32,776 nucleotides of DNA from Acutalibacteraceae bacterium (GTDB taxonomy: Bacteria > Bacillota > Clostridia > Oscillospirales > Acutalibacteraceae): assembly GCA_045121735.1 (NCBI GenBank), contig JBGVGP010000202.1:1-32776 (forward strand), given 5' to 3'. Below, in pieces: positions 7,721 through 28,561 of the stretch. Both the position numbers and the translations under genes were made by a program. The notes beneath the pieces were generated by a model. The model ran no database searches, had not been told where the DNA came from, and worked only from the letters and a program-made list of their open reading frames with translations. Position 1 is the first letter of the stretch, and every line of letters starts with the position of its first letter.

Positions 7721-7796
<76 letters not shown>

Positions 7797-8809: not shown

Positions 8810-8827
8810 ACACACAACATATGAATA

Positions 8828-8904
8828 TTACTAGGGGTGCTGAATTCTTCGGCTGAGATTATACCCATAACCTGATTCGGATAATACCGACGTAGGCTAA
8901 GTAA
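8828..8904 (+). promoter_or_regulatory. TPP (THI-box) riboswitch aptamer
   Basis: Conserved core GGGGTGC ... CTGAGA ... ACCC ... ACCTGAT..GGATAATACC..CGTAGG, closed by a P1 helix TTACT/AGTAA. Confidence 0.85.
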
Positions 8905-8912
8905 CGAGCTTT

Positions 8913-8950
8913 ATTCCACCCTTTTTGTAAAGGGTGGATTTTTTCTTTTC
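8913..8950 (+). terminator. Riboswitch expression-platform terminator
   Basis: TCCACCCTTT-ttgt-AAAGGGTGGA followed by TTTTTTCTTTT. Lies about 95 nt upstream of the first gene. Confidence 0.8.
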
Positions 8951-9043
8951 CGGCGCGCAGAAAGGAAGAAGCCCACAATCTCCACAGTATATTGATATGT
9001 TGAAATATCATCAGGTGAAAATTCACCTTAAGGAGTGTTTGTT

Positions 9044-13663: not shown

Positions 13664-13696
13664 TAAAAAAAACGCACCGAAAATCGGTGCGTTTTC
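13664..13696. terminator. Terminator (ACGCACCGA family, copy 1)
   Basis: A-run, ACGCACCGA-aaa-TCGGTGCGT, T-run. Near-identical to 16653-16685. Confidence 0.8.
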
Positions 13697-13697
13697 C

Positions 13698-13719
13698 TTA
13701 CTACTTACTACTTACTACT
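13698..13719 (-). repeat. Heptad array (GTAGTAA x3 on the minus strand)
   Basis: TTACTAC x3 on the + strand. Begins 2 nt downstream of the stop of the 13721-14245 gene. Confidence 0.8.
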
Positions 13720-15860: not shown

Positions 15861-16460
15861 ATGGAAAATCTTCAGCGTGAGCTTGAAAAAATTATAGAAA
15901 AAAACAAAAGGGACGGCATAAAACCGACCCTGCTTCTTCACGCCTGCTGTGCTCCCTGCAGCAGCTACTGCATAGAATATCTCAACGAGCATTTTGATAT
16001 CACCCTTTTATTCTACAACCCCAATATTTACCCTGCCGACGAATACGATTACCGAATCAGTGAGCTTAAAAGGCTTGTAAGTGAAATGGAACTTTCTATT
16101 CCCGTGCTTGAATGCGAAAACGACACCGAAAGCTTTTACGCCCTCGCCAAGGGCAGAGAGGATGTGCGCGAGGGCGGTGTGAGGTGCTTTGACTGCTACC
16201 GTCTGCGCCTTGAAAAAACTGCCGAGCTAGCAAAGAAGGGCGGCTTTGACTATTTCACAACCACCCTTTCTATAAGTCCTCTCAAAAACGCACAGAAGCT
16301 TCGTGAAATCGGTCTTGAGCTTGAGGAAAAATACGGCGTTAAAAATCTCCCCTCGGATTTCAAAAAGAAAGAGGGCTATAAAAGAAGCATTGAGCTTTCA
16401 AAAAAGTATAACCTTTACAGACAGGATTACTGCGGTTGCGAGTATTCGAGGAGAAGCTGA
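15861..16460 (+). CDS. queH: Epoxyqueuosine reductase QueH (DUF208)
   Basis: LLLHACCAPCS, CFDCYRLR and C-terminal DYCGCEYS cysteine motifs. ATG at 15861 follows GGGGTGAAG. Confidence 0.8.
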   Translation: MENLQRELEKIIEKNKRDGIKPTLLLHACCAPCSSYCIEYLNEHFDITLLFYNPNIYPADEYDYRISELKRLVSEMELSIPVLECENDTESFYALAKGREDVREGGVRCFDCYRLRLEKTAELAKKGGFDYFTTTLSISPLKNAQKLREIGLELEEKYGVKNLPSDFKKKEGYKRSIELSKKYNLYRQDYCGCEYSRRS

Positions 16461-16462
16461 GA

Positions 16463-16490
16463 CAATTCGCAATGCGCAATGCGCAATTCC
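16463..16490 (+). repeat. Heptad array (CAATGCG type)
   Basis: CAATTCG CAATGCG CAATGCG CAATTCC, starting 3 nt after the queH stop. Confidence 0.8.
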
Positions 16491-16540
16491 CCCTCTCCGT
16501 CAGACCTTTGGTCTGCCACCTCTCCCGATGGGAGAGGCAA
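16489..16540 (+). repeat. Y-hairpin-Y'-R element, copy 1
   Basis: CCCTCTCC GTCA CAGACC-ttt-GGTCTG CCA CCTCTCCC gat GGGAGAGG. Confidence 0.85.
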
Positions 16541-16566
16541 GTATAAAGGCCATGCAAAAAAACAGT

Positions 16567-16620
16567 CCTCGGCTCTCCATTTGGGAGAGCTGTCAAAATC
16601 AAAGATTTTGACTGAGAGGG
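16567..16620 (+). repeat. Hairpin + GTCAAAATC palindrome + mirror purine module, copy 1
   Basis: GCTCTCC-atttg-GGAGAGC, then T GTCAAAATC-aaa-GATTTTGAC T GAGAGGG. Confidence 0.85.
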
Positions 16621-16652
16621 CATACAGTTTTCCAACACGAAAATATCAACCG

Positions 16653-16685
16653 TAAAAAAACGCACCGAAAAATCGGTGCGTTTTC
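16653..16685 (+). terminator. Terminator (ACGCACCGA family, copy 2)
   Basis: ACGCACCGA-aaaa-TCGGTGCGT plus TTTT. Together with the following heptads it is about 98 percent identical to 13664-13719. Confidence 0.8.
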
Positions 16686-16686
16686 C

Positions 16687-16708
16687 TTACTACTTACTAC
16701 TTACTACT
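16687..16708 (-). repeat. Heptad array (TTACTAC x3)
   Basis: Identical to the array at 13698-13719. Confidence 0.8.
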
Positions 16709-16739
16709 AAAAAAACGCCCCATCAAGGGGCGTTTTTTT
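16708..16739 (-). terminator. Rubrerythrin terminator (bidirectional)
   Basis: ACGCCCC-atcaa-GGGGCGT flanked by A- and T-runs. Confidence 0.75.
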
Positions 16740-17271
16740 AATAATTCTCTTTTCTAACCTCGAAGTAGCTCTGAGGATGAGCGCATACGGGGCAAACCTC
16801 GGGAGCCTTTTTACCCATTACAAGGTGTCCGCAGTTACGGCATTCCCACATGGTCTCCTCGCTCTTTTCAAATACTGCCTTCATCTCAACGTTGTTAAGA
16901 AGTGCACGGTATCTTTCCTCGTGGCTCTTTTCAATAGCAGCAACCATTCTGAACTTGTTTGCAAGGTCTGTAAAGCCTTCTTCCTCAGCCTCATCAGCAA
17001 ACTTTGCATACATGTCAGTCCACTCGTAGTTTTCACCTGCTGCAGCTGCTGCAAGGTTTTCTGCTGTGTTACCAAGCTCACCGAGAGCCTTGAACCACAT
17101 TTTTGCGTGCTCCTTTTCGTTGTTTGCAGTTGCTTCAAAAATAGCGGCAATCTGCTGATAGCCTTCCTTTTTTGCTACGGAAGCAAAGTAGGTGTACTTG
17201 TTTCTTGCCTGTGATTCACCTGCAAAGGCCTCCATAAGATTTTTTTCGGTTTTTGTACCTTTAAGATTCAT
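16738..17271 (-). CDS. rbr: Rubrerythrin
   Basis: Ferritin-like di-iron domain ([30 protein letters not shown]) plus a C-terminal rubredoxin CRNCGH...CPVCAHP. Confidence 0.9.
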
Positions 17272-19068: not shown

Positions 19069-19764
19069 ATGATTTATGTAATGGGAGACATTCACGGCTG
19101 CAAGGACAAATACGACGAAATGCTCGAAAAGCTTTCACCGGGGGAGCATGACGCAGTTTTTCTTCTGGGTGATGTTATTGATGTAGGTGATGACGGTATT
19201 GAAATACTGAACGATATGATGTACCGTGCAAACATTTATCCTATCCTCGGCGAAAGAGAATACTATGCAAAAAAATTCCTGCCCCTTATTGCACAAAAGG
19301 GCAGTGCCGAAAAGGCTCTTGAATCACTTGACGGTGAGGATAAGGAAATGCTTTCAGCATGGCTCTCAATGAAAAGTGAAAAAACAATCGAGGACTTTCT
19401 TAAGCTTGATGATGAGGGCAAGGAAGCAATTCTCGAATTTCTTGAGGAGTTTGCAGTATTTGAGGAAATTGACTGCAACGGTAAAAAATTCCTTCTCACC
19501 CACGCAGGTATAGACAATCACGATGAGCTTGACCTTTACGAGCATATGGAAGAGGATTTTATTTTTGCAAAAACAGATTATAACAAAATATACTTCCCCA
19601 ACGCTTATCTTGTAACAGGTCACACACCCACCGTTGCAATAGGCAAGGAATATGCAGGTAAGGTTTACGCTAAAAAGCGTCACCTTGCCCTTGACTGCGG
19701 TGCTGCCTTCGGCGGCAGACTTGCGGCAGTCTGCCTTGATACACTTAAGGTAAGCTACTGCTGA
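19069..19764 (+). CDS. Metallophosphoesterase (PPP-family Ser/Thr phosphatase-like)
   Basis: GDIHG, GDVIDVGD and GHTP motifs. Lies 11 nt downstream of the ABC-F gene. Confidence 0.75.
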   Translation: MIYVMGDIHGCKDKYDEMLEKLSPGEHDAVFLLGDVIDVGDDGIEILNDMMYRANIYPILGEREYYAKKFLPLIAQKGSAEKALESLDGEDKEMLSAWLSMKSEKTIEDFLKLDDEGKEAILEFLEEFAVFEEIDCNGKKFLLTHAGIDNHDELDLYEHMEEDFIFAKTDYNKIYFPNAYLVTGHTPTVAIGKEYAGKVYAKKRHLALDCGAAFGGRLAAVCLDTLKVSYC

Positions 19765-19766
19765 TT

Positions 19767-19805
19767 TAGTAGTCAGTAGTCAGTAGCCAGTAGTCAGGAG
19801 TCAGG
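19767..19805 (+). repeat. Heptad array (AGTCAGT type)
   Basis: TAGT AGTCAGT AGTCAGT AGCCAGT AGTCAGG AGTCAGG, starting 3 nt after the stop at 19762-19764. Confidence 0.85.
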
Positions 19806-19831
19806 AAACCGCCCGAAAGGGCGGTTTTTTT
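19806..19831 (+). terminator. Terminator (ACCGCCC-N4-GGGCGGT family)
   Basis: AAACCGCCC-gaaa-GGGCGGTTTTTTT. Confidence 0.85.
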
Positions 19832-23982: not shown

Positions 23983-24002
23983 CAAGCAAACAGTAATAAG
24001 TA

Positions 24003-24036
24003 GTCACGCGCGAGTAAATTCGTGCGTGACTTTTTG
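24003..24036 (+). terminator. prfB terminator (GTCACGCGCGA family, copy 1)
   Basis: GTCACGCGCGA-gtaaat-TCGTGCGTGAC plus TTTTT. Confidence 0.8.
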
Positions 24037-24094
24037 TTTTGCTCCGTGCGCGTCATAGAGTCGAGAGGTAACGCGTAGGGTACACTCTTGGTAA

Positions 24095-24140
24095 CTCCTT
24101 CCGTCACCCTTCGGGTGCCACCTTCCTCAAAGAGGAAGGC
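24095..24140 (+). repeat. Y-hairpin-Y'-R element, copy 2
   Basis: CTCCTTCC GT CACCC-ttc-GGGTG CCA CCTTCCTC aaa GAGGAAGG. Confidence 0.85.
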
Positions 24141-24143
24141 TTT

Positions 24144-24195
24144 AAGGCTCCCTCGCTGAGGGAGCTGTCAAAATCTATGATTTTGACTGAGGGAG
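24144..24195 (+). repeat. Hairpin + GTCAAAATC palindrome + purine module, copy 2
   Basis: GCTCCCTC-gct-GAGGGAGC, then T GTCAAAATC-tat-GATTTTGAC T GAGGGAG. Confidence 0.85.
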
Positions 24196-24204
24196 TAAAA
24201 ACCA

Positions 24205-24238
24205 CACACGCACGATTAAGTTCGGGCGTGACTTTTTA
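24205..24238 (+). terminator. Terminator (GTCACGCGCGA family, copy 2, one mismatch)
   Basis: CACGCACGA-ttaagt-TCGGGCGTG AC TTTTT. Confidence 0.65.
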
Positions 24239-24297
24239 TTTTTATGTGATTTAAAAAGTACCGAGGGTCTGACGGAGAGTGTCCTGACTACTGCACC

Positions 24298-24382
24298 TTT
24301 TTCATACGCCACAGCGTATTTCATAGCGCAGCTATTTCATATCCGCAGGATATTTCATAAATCCGTAAGGATTTATTTCATT
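24298..24382 (+). repeat. Array of four mini-hairpins separated by (A)TTTCAT
   Basis: TTTCAT occurs at 24300, 24319, 24335, 24353 and 24376. The intervening palindromes are ACGC-caca-GCGT, AGC-gca-GCT, ATCC-gca-GGAT and AAATCC-gtaa-GGATTT. Confidence 0.75.
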
Positions 24383-24385
24383 GTC

Positions 24386-24494
24386 CCCTGGCTACTCACT
24401 ACTCTCTACTGCGCTGTCAGGCGCCCTGGCTACTCACTACTCTCTACTGCGCCGTCAGGCGCCCCTGACTACTGCCTACTGCCTACTGACTACT
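24386..24494 (+). repeat. 38-bp tandem direct repeat x2 plus heptad tail
   Basis: CCCTGGCTACTCACTACTCTCTACTGCGC(T/C)GTCAGGCG at 24386 and 24424, with 1 mismatch. The tail is CTGACTA CTGCCTA CTGCCTA CTGACTA (24465-24494). Confidence 0.85.
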
Positions 24495-24507
24495 TTTAAA
24501 TTCCCCC

Positions 24508-24952: not shown

Positions 24953-26606
24953 CTTTGATTCTTATGTAAAAGAAATCTGTAAGGATATAAAATCAAGACC
25001 GAGACGTGAAGAGGTTGAAGAGGAGCTGCTTTGTCATCTCGAGGATAACTACGAAAGAAATCTCAATATCGGTATGACCGAGGAAGAGGCAAGGCTCAAT
25101 GCCATTAAAGAAATGGGGGACGGTGAATTACTTTCCTATTATATTTCACAGGTCAATTCAGATTCACCGCTGAAAAATATGAATTCTGCACTTATAGGTA
25201 TAATAAGCGGATTTGTAGGCCTTAACTTCCTGTTTTCAGGCGTTGTAAAGGAGACTGCAGTCGCTTTTGGCTTTATACTTATGTTCCTCCCTCTTTTAAG
25301 AATGAGGAAAATGAACAAAAAGGCAGAAGCCGCCCTTCACTTTTTCAATTTTTATGCCCTTTCACAGCTTTTTTATTACTGCATAAGCATAGGCAATATA
25401 CTTCCTCAATGGGTGTTTTACACTTATATAATTGTTAATTCTCTTTTTGAGGGTCTTTTCTGGATTTTCCTTTTCTCTTCAATTTATGAGCTTTGCAGTA
25501 ATAACCTTGATGAAGAAGCAAAAAAAACAAGGCTTGTTTTCTGCGGTGTGTTTTACATGCTTTTATCCTTTCTGTCAGGCTATATTCTTATTCTCTCCGA
25601 GGGTGAAAGCGTACACATTGATGATTTCATCATGCCTTTAATTCTGATTTTTATGTTCATATTTACTCTTGTTCAGCTTTTCAGGGCAAAAAGTCTTTTA
25701 TGGGCAGCTGACAGTGAGTACGGTATTGAGTCTGCAAACAAAAAGAATCTTGCCGTTTATTACTGTGCAGGACTTTTCTGCCTTATTACAATAATCGGCT
25801 GCAACTATTTTGCCTCAACAAAGGAGCCTGTAAAGGCAGAGCATATAATTCACGATGTTTCACAGGAAGAACAAAAGGAAGCCGACAGGGTAAGACAGAA
25901 AATGCTCAAGTGGGACGTTGACCCACAGATTGTTGAGGATTTACCCGACAGCGAAATTCTGAACTATAAGGATGCTGAATTTGTTTCTTTCGGTGCTGAC
26001 GGCGGAAGCCTCGGCGGTTCATCCTACGACAGCGGAGCAAGCAGTGACCTTTACTACTATTGGTTTTTCATTCCCGATAAGGAATACGAGGGTAATTATG
26101 ATGTAAGGCTGCTTTGTTATATTGAAAGTCACTATGCAGACAAGGTAAAAAGCCTTTACCGGAAAGGCTTTTACTATATGCCGTGGCAGAATTATTCCTA
26201 CGGCTTCGACATTTTTCCCCTTAACTTTGAGGATGAGTTCAACGGCTCTTACATTGGTATAATCACCGAAGAAAAGGGAAAGAAATACAATGCAGAGCCC
26301 TTTTTCACTTACAGAATCAAGGATACCGAGGAAGGATTTCCGAATGATTACCCCAAGGGCTTTGAATACAGAGAGGAAAAGGGGCAACGGGTATATTTTG
26401 CCATACCATTTGGTGTAGCCAACCCCGAGGAATTTGAAGCCACAATATATGCGGCAACGGTAAGGCAGCGTTGGTTTACGGGCTTTAATTACAAAAGCTC
26501 TGCCGAATATATCAGAACTATTTTCAAGGGTGACAGCCTGCATATACCTCAGGATACTTATATGCCCTATTATTACAGGCTGCATAATATTTATAGTAGT
26601 AAGTAG
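24939..26606 (+). CDS. PadR-associated multi-pass membrane protein with large C-terminal domain
   Basis: ATG at 24939 (RBS GGGAGG) overlaps the padR end by 14 nt. N-terminal DUF1700-like helical prefix (DFDSYVKEICKDI...EEELLCHLEDNYE), about 6 TM helices, then a ~260-aa Tyr-rich soluble domain. Confidence 0.65.
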   Translation: MLPLDFDSYVKEICKDIKSRPRREEVEEELLCHLEDNYERNLNIGMTEEEARLNAIKEMGDGELLSYYISQVNSDSPLKNMNSALIGIISGFVGLNFLFSGVVKETAVAFGFILMFLPLLRMRKMNKKAEAALHFFNFYALSQLFYYCISIGNILPQWVFYTYIIVNSLFEGLFWIFLFSSIYELCSNNLDEEAKKTRLVFCGVFYMLLSFLSGYILILSEGESVHIDDFIMPLILIFMFIFTLVQLFRAKSLLWAADSEYGIESANKKNLAVYYCAGLFCLITIIGCNYFASTKEPVKAEHIIHDVSQEEQKEADRVRQKMLKWDVDPQIVEDLPDSEILNYKDAEFVSFGADGGSLGGSSYDSGASSDLYYYWFFIPDKEYEGNYDVRLLCYIESHYADKVKSLYRKGFYYMPWQNYSYGFDIFPLNFEDEFNGSYIGIITEEKGKKYNAEPFFTYRIKDTEEGFPNDYPKGFEYREEKGQRVYFAIPFGVANPEEFEATIYAATVRQRWFTGFNYKSSAEYIRTIFKGDSLHIPQDTYMPYYYRLHNIYSSK

Positions 26607-26636
26607 TAAGTAGTGAGTAGTCAGTAGTCAGTAGTC
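26595..26636 (+). repeat. Heptad array (AGTAGTA x2, AGTAGTG, AGTAGTC x3)
   Basis: Six units. The last four codons and the TAG stop (26604-26606) of the upstream gene lie inside the array. Confidence 0.9.
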
Positions 26637-26667
26637 ACGCGCGATTAAGTTCGAGCGTGACTTTTTT
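26634..26667 (+). terminator. Terminator (GTCACGCGCGA family, copy 3)
   Basis: GTCACGCGCGA-ttaagt-TCGAGCGTGAC plus TTTTTT. Confidence 0.8.
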
Positions 26668-26695
26668 GTTTACATCCGCACGCAGTAAGGACCAA

Positions 26696-26746
26696 GGACT
26701 CCCTCCGTCACGGCTTTGCCGTGCCACCTCCCTCAAGGAGGGAGAC
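26696..26746 (+). repeat. Y-hairpin-Y'-R element, copy 3
   Basis: CTCCCTCC GT CACGGC-ttt-GCCGTG CCA C CTCCCTC aag GAGGGAG. Confidence 0.85.
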
Positions 26747-28438: not shown

Positions 28439-28446
28439 GGGTATTT

Positions 28447-28488
28447 GAGTAGTCAGTAGCCAGTAGTCAGGGCCGAGGACCGAGTAGG
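28447..28488 (+). repeat. Heptad array (mixed AGTAGTC and GGCCGAG types)
   Basis: GAGTAGT CAGTAGC CAGTAGT CAGGGCC GAGGACC GAGTAGG. Confidence 0.85.
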
Positions 28489-28512
28489 GACACGGCTTGC
28501 CGTGTCCGCAGG

Positions 28513-28561
28513 TTTCCCTCTCCGTCACTTCGTGACACCTCTCCCAAGGGGAGAGGCAAGG
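28513..28561 (+). repeat. Y-hairpin-Y'-R element, copy 4
   Basis: CCCTCTCC GTCAC-ttc-GTGAC A CCTCTCCC aag GGGAGAGG. Preceded by the hairpin GGACACGG-cttg-CCGTGTCC. Confidence 0.85.

Follow-up and report, generated by a model that had tools for sequence, protein, structure and literature searches.

Paired intergenic modules in an Acutalibacteraceae contig as probable units of a dispersed repeat with hairpin-bridged, triplex-type covariation

What are the two copies of a compact, palindrome-centred module that recur in a 32 776 nt stretch of Acutalibacteraceae bacterium DNA (GCA_045121735.1, contig JBGVGP010000202.1, positions 1 to 32 776; hereafter the window)? An earlier note had described at each site a hairpin with one pyrimidine (Y) and one purine (R) arm, a 9 bp dyad and a purine tail, and both modules agree with that description letter for letter (16572–16620 and 24147–24195). 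On the + strand, site 1 consists of GCTCTCC-ATTTG-GGAGAGC (16572–16590), T, the dyad GTCAAAATC-AAA-GATTTTGAC (16592–16612), T and the tail GAGAGGG (16614–16620); site 2 consists of GCTCCCTC-GCT-GAGGGAGC (24147–24165), T, the dyad GTCAAAATC-TAT-GATTTTGAC (24167–24187), T and the tail GAGGGAG (24189–24195). Searching the window for GTCAAAATC-N3-GATTTTGAC with up to three mismatches permitted returns these two matches alone (0.00 expected from 100 shuffles), and both lie in like surroundings, with a covarying Y/R hairpin and T before the dyad and T and a purine tail after it. The first hairpin covaries between the copies and the tail is the mirror of the hairpin's purine arm in both, as had been noticed. 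We consider that the modules are probably units of a dispersed, non-autonomous intergenic DNA repeat with hairpin-bridged covariation of the intrastrand-triplex type.

Each module is preceded by a Y-Y′-R element (16491–16537 at site 1 and 24095–24139 at site 2), and the composites extend over 16491–16620 and 24095–24195, in agreement with the extents first proposed. The earlier note took the module for a distinct companion of this element. Read on the − strand, however, the module runs Y tract, A, GTCAAAATC-N3-GATTTTGAC, AG, Y arm, loop, R arm, and the Y-Y′-R element has a matching architecture, with a middle hairpin of its own that begins GTCA and finishes TG(A/C)C. Since the two have one architecture, the composite is, as read from the sequence, an inverted, tail-to-tail pair of two units from one repeat family, and the supposed companion is a Y-Y′-R unit on the opposite strand. 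A scan requiring only a hairpin and then a Y/R hairpin within a few bases identifies six units in the window, four A and two B; they include two shorter copies of the upstream module that lack a companion (26699–26745 and 28516–28556). When each module is folded as single-stranded DNA, two stable hairpins form and the tail, which is the third tract, is left unpaired (z −5.9 to −7.4, Watson–Crick folding only).

The units obey a mirror rule. The outer tract of each window unit repeats the pyrimidine arm in reversed order, not as its complement, and stays in register around the bridging hairpin (A units 8/8, 8/8, 7/7 and 8/8; B units 6/6 and 7/7). A genome search extends this to further copies, whose tails are likewise related to the hairpin arm: 69 unfiltered non-redundant units, drawn from other genomes as well as the window, match the antiparallel mirror third tract of a class II triplex at 408 of 517 positions (permuted 332.5 ± 5.6, z = 13.4). 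In a set of 33 non-redundant units the mirror model scores 190/237 (permuted 149 ± 4.1), a value attained by 0 of 5000 permutations. A direct-repeat model, in which the tail would pair by Watson–Crick with the hairpin's pyrimidine arm, scores 161/237 (permuted 148 ± 3.7) and was rejected, 161 against 190. Unrelated hairpin pairs caught by the unit scanner have a mirror score of 44%. The 27 solo units, which have no Watson–Crick partner within 250 nt, match at 167/209 positions (permuted 136.5 ± 3.8), so the closing stem of the composite is not what produces the rule. Y1, the outer tract at site 2 (CTCCTTCC), exactly mirrors the arm CCTTCCTC but complements the tail inexactly, pairing with it through a G·T wobble. 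About 28 distinct Y′ arm sequences are each paired with their own matching third tract, strong comparative backing for the suggestion in the note of an antiparallel purine-motif third-strand geometry akin to the logic of the Y-Y′-R element. To our knowledge, mirror covariation of homopurine/homopyrimidine tracts is not generated by Watson–Crick pairing, recognition by a dimeric protein, replication or recombination. Mirror-symmetric tract covariation is a requirement of an intramolecular triple helix. The strand order of class II in the Hoyne/Maher and ITxF classification (Y arm, loop, R arm, loop, reverse-Hoogsteen tract, 5′ to 3′) is found in both modules on the + strand and in all units on the purine strand.

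Unit A1 opens with the third-strand tract CCCTCTCC (16491–16498, + strand), which mirrors Y′ (16519–16526) at 8/8 positions and is also the Watson–Crick partner of the tail at 16614–16620. Its bridging hairpin GTCAGACC-TTT-GGTCTGCC (16499–16517, +) is of the GTCA…TG(C)C type with a T·C mismatch at the base, and its Y′/R hairpin is CCTCTCCC-GAT-GGGAGAGG (16519–16537, +). In unit B1, its partner, the order on the − strand is third Y, hairpin, Y′, R, which on the + strand becomes class II Y-R-R(H); the Y′/R hairpin (16572–16590, −) is bridged by the strand-neutral dyad (16592–16612) to the tract GAGAGGG (16614–16620, −), the mirror of GGGAGAG/GGAGAG. At site 2, unit A2 consists of the third-strand tract CTCCTTCC (24095–24102, +), the bridging hairpin GTCACCC-TTCG-GGTGCC (24103–24119, +) and the Y′/R hairpin CCTTCCTC-AAA-GAGGAAGG (24121–24139, +). 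In unit B2 the Y′/R hairpin (24147–24165, −) is followed by the strand-neutral dyad (24167–24187) and by GAGGGAG (24189–24195, −), which is its own mirror. The solo unit A3 (26699–26745, +) is composed of CTCCCTCC, GTCACGGC-TTT-GCCGTGCC, A and CCTCCCTC-AAG-GAGGGAG(A), with a mirror of 7/7 and no Watson–Crick partner within 250 nt; the solo unit A4 (28516–28556, +) is composed of CCCTCTCC, GTCAC-TTC-GTGAC, A and CCTCTCCC-AAG-GGGAGAGG, with a mirror of 8/8. A threefold tandem repeat of CGCAATG (16468–16488) abuts the site-1 composite on its left.

The dyad is widely distributed. When one genome of each species (596 Gb) is scanned for the exact pattern, the dyad is located at no fewer than 120 genome loci, where chance would give about 10–20 matches for 18 fixed bases. 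Among the matches listed there are 123 dyad instances, with 43 clean units and 24 more that have adjoining Y/R tracts. These matches come mostly from metagenome-assembled genomes (MAGs) of gut Clostridia (Oscillospiraceae, Acutalibacteraceae, Faecousia, Fimenecus), in which the typical neighbours are a Y/R hairpin, T, the dyad and then a purine tract; Chryseobacterium and Cloacibacterium carry a matching layout. The unit scanner yields 92 units in the dyad loci but only one in gut-Clostridia sequence chosen without regard to the dyad (about 0.4 Mb). In the comparison of related strains, the only contig with the window's QueH is 100% identical; the nearest other QueH loci in metagenomes (at most 65% identical) are nearly unit-free and served only as an unbiased negative sample, and the release factor is not on record. 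Many copies lie at contig ends, as with high-copy repeats, and triplex-type repeats break the short-read assemblies of gut MAGs.

Units are about 45–55 nt long, dispersed and intergenic. On the pyrimidine strand they comprise a third Y tract, a bridging hairpin (nearly always GTCA…TGAC), A or AG, Y′, a loop of 3–8 nt and R; on the opposite strand this becomes Y-loop-R, hairpin and purine tail, the layout of a class II purine-motif intrastrand triplex. The bridging hairpin varies among units of the family, with versions such as GCCTTGACGGC, CGCCGATGGCG, GCTTCGC, CTTCG and AAAACC/GGTTTT; the six window units have five different versions, and compensatory variants such as GTCAAAACC/GGTTTTGAC occur outside the window. 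The GTCA/TGAC base is exact in 36/57 non-redundant units, and another 8/57, including three of the four A units of the window, have a T·C mismatch there. The AAAATC dyad is thus one allele of the bridging hairpin. Its arms are identical in the two window copies, as the note stated; the invariance does not extend to the family, since the interior of the GTCA…TGAC hairpin varies even within the window, and the idea of an invariant 9 bp operator gives way to that of a variable hairpin with a conserved base and compensatory variants.

With respect to genes, only 3/86 units lie inside open reading frames (ORFs). The pyrimidine strand is oriented with transcription in 38 cases against 49, i.e. there is no strand bias, and 87 neighbouring genes point toward a unit and 48 away, the units favouring gene 3′ ends. 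The family is patchy in distribution, and inverted unit pairs occur at both window sites and at loci L043, L207 and L069. For nearby genes the family is probably a selfish or neutral element. Rfam 15 gives no match over either site at the gathering score (whole window), none over the element at E ≤ 10 for site 1 (16440–16760), and none for other dyad-bearing elements. The AAAATC dyad is also found in other repeat contexts, namely a Ruminococcus multi-hairpin element, Methanobacterium hairpin clusters and the tips of longer palindromes in several phyla; it is possible that one shared factor recognizes it in all of them. The Ruminococcus repeat (L051 6915–7010, in a MAG; also L027, L049 and L093) has a closing stem ACTAATCTT/AAGATTAGT that encloses the AAAATC dyad hairpin, a CCGCCT-NNN-AGGCGG hairpin and a long ATCAAATTATAGAC hairpin, and it has no Rfam match. 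In Methanobacterium sp. MBAC-LM (L009 2330–2440) and 13 similar loci of methanogens the dyad is flanked by GC…AG and sits in clusters of related AAAATC-N3-GATTTT hairpins without purine/pyrimidine mirror tracts.

One filled and empty pair of sites bears on mobility. Locus L069 has a 165 nt insert of two head-to-head units, bounded by a 13 bp direct repeat ATAAATTATAATT, an AT-rich palindrome that is present in single copy at the empty orthologous site L089. In at least one lineage insertion has been MITE-like, i.e. like that of a miniature inverted-repeat transposable element. At several loci in different genomes AAATTATAATTT stands on both sides of solo units, at −19 and +21 nt. This AT-rich palindrome is the duplicated target or the terminal flank of one subfamily (L069 150–570 versus L089 2055–2295; L081, L105, L106, L108). 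A plasmid origin was set aside after a plasmid search gave only irrelevant Sphingomonas matches, and a phage origin after a collection of phages returned nothing but faecal contigs that are unverified and unannotated; the four dyad matches in the 2.9 million contigs of IMG/VR are uninformative on phage origin.

How might such a unit work? The covariation, together with the precedent of the TMECO repeats (PMC4666352), suggests that a triplex is formed, and we infer that the fold forms in DNA and not RNA and that it is the fold that is selected. Where a strand turns single, be it at a replication fork, within a transcription bubble or as a transposition intermediate, the Y′/R hairpin would fold, the bridging hairpin would act as a rigid turn and the third tract would then settle in the major groove, with G·G-C and A·A-T (or T·A-T) triads on the purine strand or C+·G-C and T·A-T triads on the pyrimidine strand. 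What favours the fold could be the element's propagation, its recognition or some influence on polymerases. A bolder form of this proposal, which we regard as doubtful, is that the triple-helical fold is under purifying selection because some widespread factor (a structure-specific transposase, a nuclease or a replication protein) recognizes the junction of hairpin and triplex; this would be the first natural family with an intramolecular triplex of 6–10 triads backed by three-way covariation, and the GTCAAAATC-N3-GATTTTGAC clamp would be common to Clostridia, Bacteroidota and methanogens.

The choice of strand was approached through the third base, tallied on the purine strand in 57 units that had been chosen to have no more than two mirror mismatches. 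At G-C pairs (299 positions) the third base is G in 289 cases and another base in 10; at A-T pairs (129 positions) it is A in 83, T in 44, G in one and C in one. Of the 44 T cases, 33 are at the loop end, where a conserved flank, ACAAT, may account for them, and one more is at the hairpin end. With the loop-end position trimmed, allowing T·A-T gains no more than control relaxations do (69 units), and a choice of strand and motif from the mismatch spectrum, suggestive at first, was given up as not significant after this trimming. C makes up about 70% of the third tracts on the pyrimidine strand, and neighbouring C+ triads are unfavourable at neutral pH. RNA does not form purine-motif triplexes (as cited in PMC4666352). 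This limit on RNA, the C-rich tracts, the unbiased orientation and the free third tract in the single-stranded DNA fold favour DNA and the purine strand.

Several observations weigh against a selected triplex in a mobile DNA repeat. The tails of tail-to-tail composites keep both the mirror and the complement relation; they can also pair by Watson–Crick with the outer Y tract, in a closing stem of 7–8 bp, and the two folds would compete. In the L207 composite the tail fits the closing stem better (7/7) than the mirror of its own arm (6/7). The units share descent, and the permutation z-scores therefore overstate their independence; most loci, moreover, were ascertained via the dyad. As to strand, the comparative data fit a purine and a pyrimidine motif alike and leave the choice undecided. 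No target duplication is visible at the window's own copies and no empty orthologous site came to light for them, and within 1.5 kb of the units in the loci examined there is no recurrent transposase-like ORF and no neighbour resembling a RAYT (REP-associated tyrosine transposase). For TMECO itself, dimethyl sulphate footprinting in cells saw no triplex, and no function was found (PMC4666352).

Could the units act as RNA instead? The composites, 100–130 nt in length, could be structured RNAs (a small RNA or an element of a 3′ untranslated region) with a five-way junction, in which the tail and the outer Y tract would form a closing stem, the tail as its 3′ arm, and the mirror would be incidental; we think this unlikely. 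RNA folding of both composites does yield that five-way multibranch (z = −4.7 at site 1 and −6.9 at site 2), closed by CCCTCTC with GAGAGGG at site 1 and by ACTCCTTC with GAGGGAGT at site 2. The L207 composite has perfect tail/Y1 complementarity, and the site-2 composite stands between two hairpins of one repeat family, a terminator-like one (24002–24031) and a second (24193–24242, a terminator by eye that the scan left unflagged). However, solo units that have no possible partner still mirror, the outer tract at site 2 agrees with the mirror rather than with the exact complement, both strands fold about equally well, orientation relative to genes is unbiased, head-to-head units in other genomes permit no closing stem and the Rfam searches described above give no match. 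The closing-stem multibranch was dropped as the chief explanation, given the mirror in solo units and the head-to-head arrangements elsewhere. There is equally little chance, in our estimate, that the unit acts as a pyrimidine-strand RNA, a class IV pyrimidine-motif triple helix (C+·G-C, U·A-U) that would cap transcripts and keep exonucleases off mRNA 3′ ends, as a bacterial counterpart of the triple-helical RNA stability elements. The mirror rule fits a parallel pyrimidine third strand just as well, units favour positions downstream of gene 3′ ends and pyrimidine-type intrastrand triplexes can form in RNA (PMC4666352), but runs of C+ triads in tracts of about 70% C are disfavoured at neutral pH, as was noted for the C-rich TMECO strand too. 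Neither does the pyrimidine strand show a sense-strand bias (38 versus 49); 44 of the third-tract bases that face A-T pairs are A when read on the pyrimidine strand, a non-canonical parallel triad (34 of them at tract ends), and several window units lie beyond terminators.

The remaining explanations dispense with a triplex. If the 9 bp dyad served in duplex DNA as the operator of a dimeric DNA-binding protein, or of some other host factor that recognizes a specific sequence, the flanking tracts would be secondary; the free variation of the 3 nt centre is like that of many operators, and the exact 18 nt recur in several repeat contexts across Clostridia, Bacteroidota, Methanobacterium and further phyla, far above the roughly 10–20 matches of chance. 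We nevertheless hold an operator to be quite improbable, as the hairpin interior varies within one genome with pairing kept (five versions in six window units, and GTCAAAACC/GGTTTTGAC elsewhere), the sites are chiefly at gene 3′ ends and not promoters, and the two window sites flank unrelated housekeeping genes. Least probable of all, and very unlikely in our judgement, is an ordinary palindromic repeat of the MITE or REP (repetitive extragenic palindromic) kind without a selected triplex, its mirror being a coincidence of low complexity or inherited from a single founder. Such a repeat would account for the high copy number, the assemblies broken at contig ends and the target-site duplication in one lineage, and the tracts are indeed low-complexity, two-letter sequence. 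But permutations that preserve composition never attain the observed mirror score, some 28 arm sequences with matching third tracts demand repeated, coordinated change at three segments, and mirror, non-complementary repeats are not made by replication or recombination.

Among characterized repeats the closest parallel is BoxC, also called PIT or TMECO; work on BoxC/PIT elements reportedly goes back to Hoyne and Maher (2000, 2002). TMECO is a repeat of Escherichia coli, other Proteobacteria and Cyanobacteria with the pattern CCCTCNCCC-N3-6-GGGNGAGGG-N3-GGGNGAGGG and forms a class II purine-motif intrastrand triplex (PMC4666352), very stable as single-stranded DNA by circular dichroism (CD) as well as nuclear magnetic resonance, with a melting temperature of 70–82 °C (Holder et al., 2015, PMC4666352). 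It lies between genes without preference for a strand, often as inverted pairs; it acts neither as a promoter nor as a terminator and is tied to local genome variability (PMC4666352). The present family shares with it the order of the purine strand (Y arm, short loop, R arm, linker, mirroring second R tract), G/C-richness, an intergenic position without strand bias or link to gene function, frequent inverted pairs, patchiness among related genomes and local insertion/deletion variability. The two differ in the second loop, which in TMECO is 3 nt (TTA or CCG) and here is a 13–25 nt hairpin with a GTCA/TGAC base plus 1–2 junction bases. They differ also in the arms (6–10 nt and many sequence types here, one 9 nt consensus in TMECO), in the hosts (gut Clostridia and Bacteroidota here) and in the 13 bp target duplication of one lineage, TMECO being without a link to mobile elements. 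The TMECO pattern has no match in the window and none in 207 loci. In both modules loop 2 is 23 nt (T, the 21 nt hairpin, T), outside the short loops of class II (1–6 nt in ITxF, 0–10 nt in Hoyne et al.). Published searches, with loops capped at 6 or 10 nt, would therefore miss a hairpin-bridged family, and no later description of one was found in the literature consulted. The family would thus work like the known intrastrand-triplex repeats but stands outside the TMECO sequence family, and its hairpin-bridged architecture appears to be new.

The comparison extends to repeats of other kinds. The G-rich repeats of Methanomicrobiaceae with a C-rich track are intergenic, and in single-stranded DNA an antiparallel G-rich third strand lies on a GC hairpin, by CD and S1 probing (PMC8044849). 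They and the present family are alike intergenic, highly repeated and laid out with a third strand on a hairpin, a fold that is proposed for the present family. In the Methanomicrobiaceae repeats, however, the G-rich third strand is 5′ of the hairpin (class I-like) with no bridging hairpin, and the fold competes with a G-quadruplex, whereas the window units have no four G-runs. Like REP elements, bacterial interspersed mosaic elements (BIMEs) and MITEs, the units are short, non-coding, high-copy intergenic palindromes, single or in inverted pairs and mostly downstream of genes, and like MITEs one subfamily has a target-site duplication. Unlike REP/BIME, they have no GTAG-type head (the base is GTCA/TGAC), consist of two hairpins and a mirror tract and have no RAYT in view nearby; unlike both REPs and MITEs, their conserved defining feature is a mirror repeat. 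With H-DNA they share a mirror-symmetric pair of purine tracts and the same triad rules, but the halves are about 23 bp apart, the spacer is a palindrome of its own and one half lies within an inverted repeat, so the natural fold would be intrastrand, hairpin and third strand both coming from one strand, and not classical H-DNA.

Other features were recorded in the window. A Gut-1 RNA (RF01706) match lies right of the site-2 composite (24313–24383, − strand, 60.6 bits against a gathering score of 50) and is followed by a 38 nt tandem direct repeat, 97% identical (24386–24461). A thiamine pyrophosphate riboswitch (8823–8916, +, 64 bits) is upstream of ORFs that start at 9035 and 9312, and a tRNA-Thr(CGT) is at 7721–7796 (+). 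Tandem heptamers AGTAGTC/AGTAGTA (19754–19817, 26588–26651 and 28441–28490; as the complement at 13690–13719, 16686–16713 and 24464–24495) occur in many intergenic regions, always beside terminator-like hairpins, and form another repeat family of the genome. The terminator-like hairpins are themselves repeated with 78–88% identity (23991–24040, 24193–24242 and 26622–26671; 13664–13719 and 16653–16708), and the site-2 composite lies between two copies of one such family. Right of site 1, hairpin-plus-T-run terminators are seen by eye at about 16658–16690 and 16711–16740; a simple terminator scan of 16300–16900 missed them.

The role of intrastrand triplexes in living bacteria is unsettled. To this question the family adds another kind of evidence, dozens of variants in which the arm, its complement and the mirror tract have changed together, and such joint change in three segments would be hard to explain unless three-stranded pairing is selected. 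Searches for short loops overlooked an architectural class with a hairpin-delivered third strand in Clostridia that are abundant in the human gut, and the natural variants of this class are a ready compensatory-mutation series for biophysical and genetic tests.

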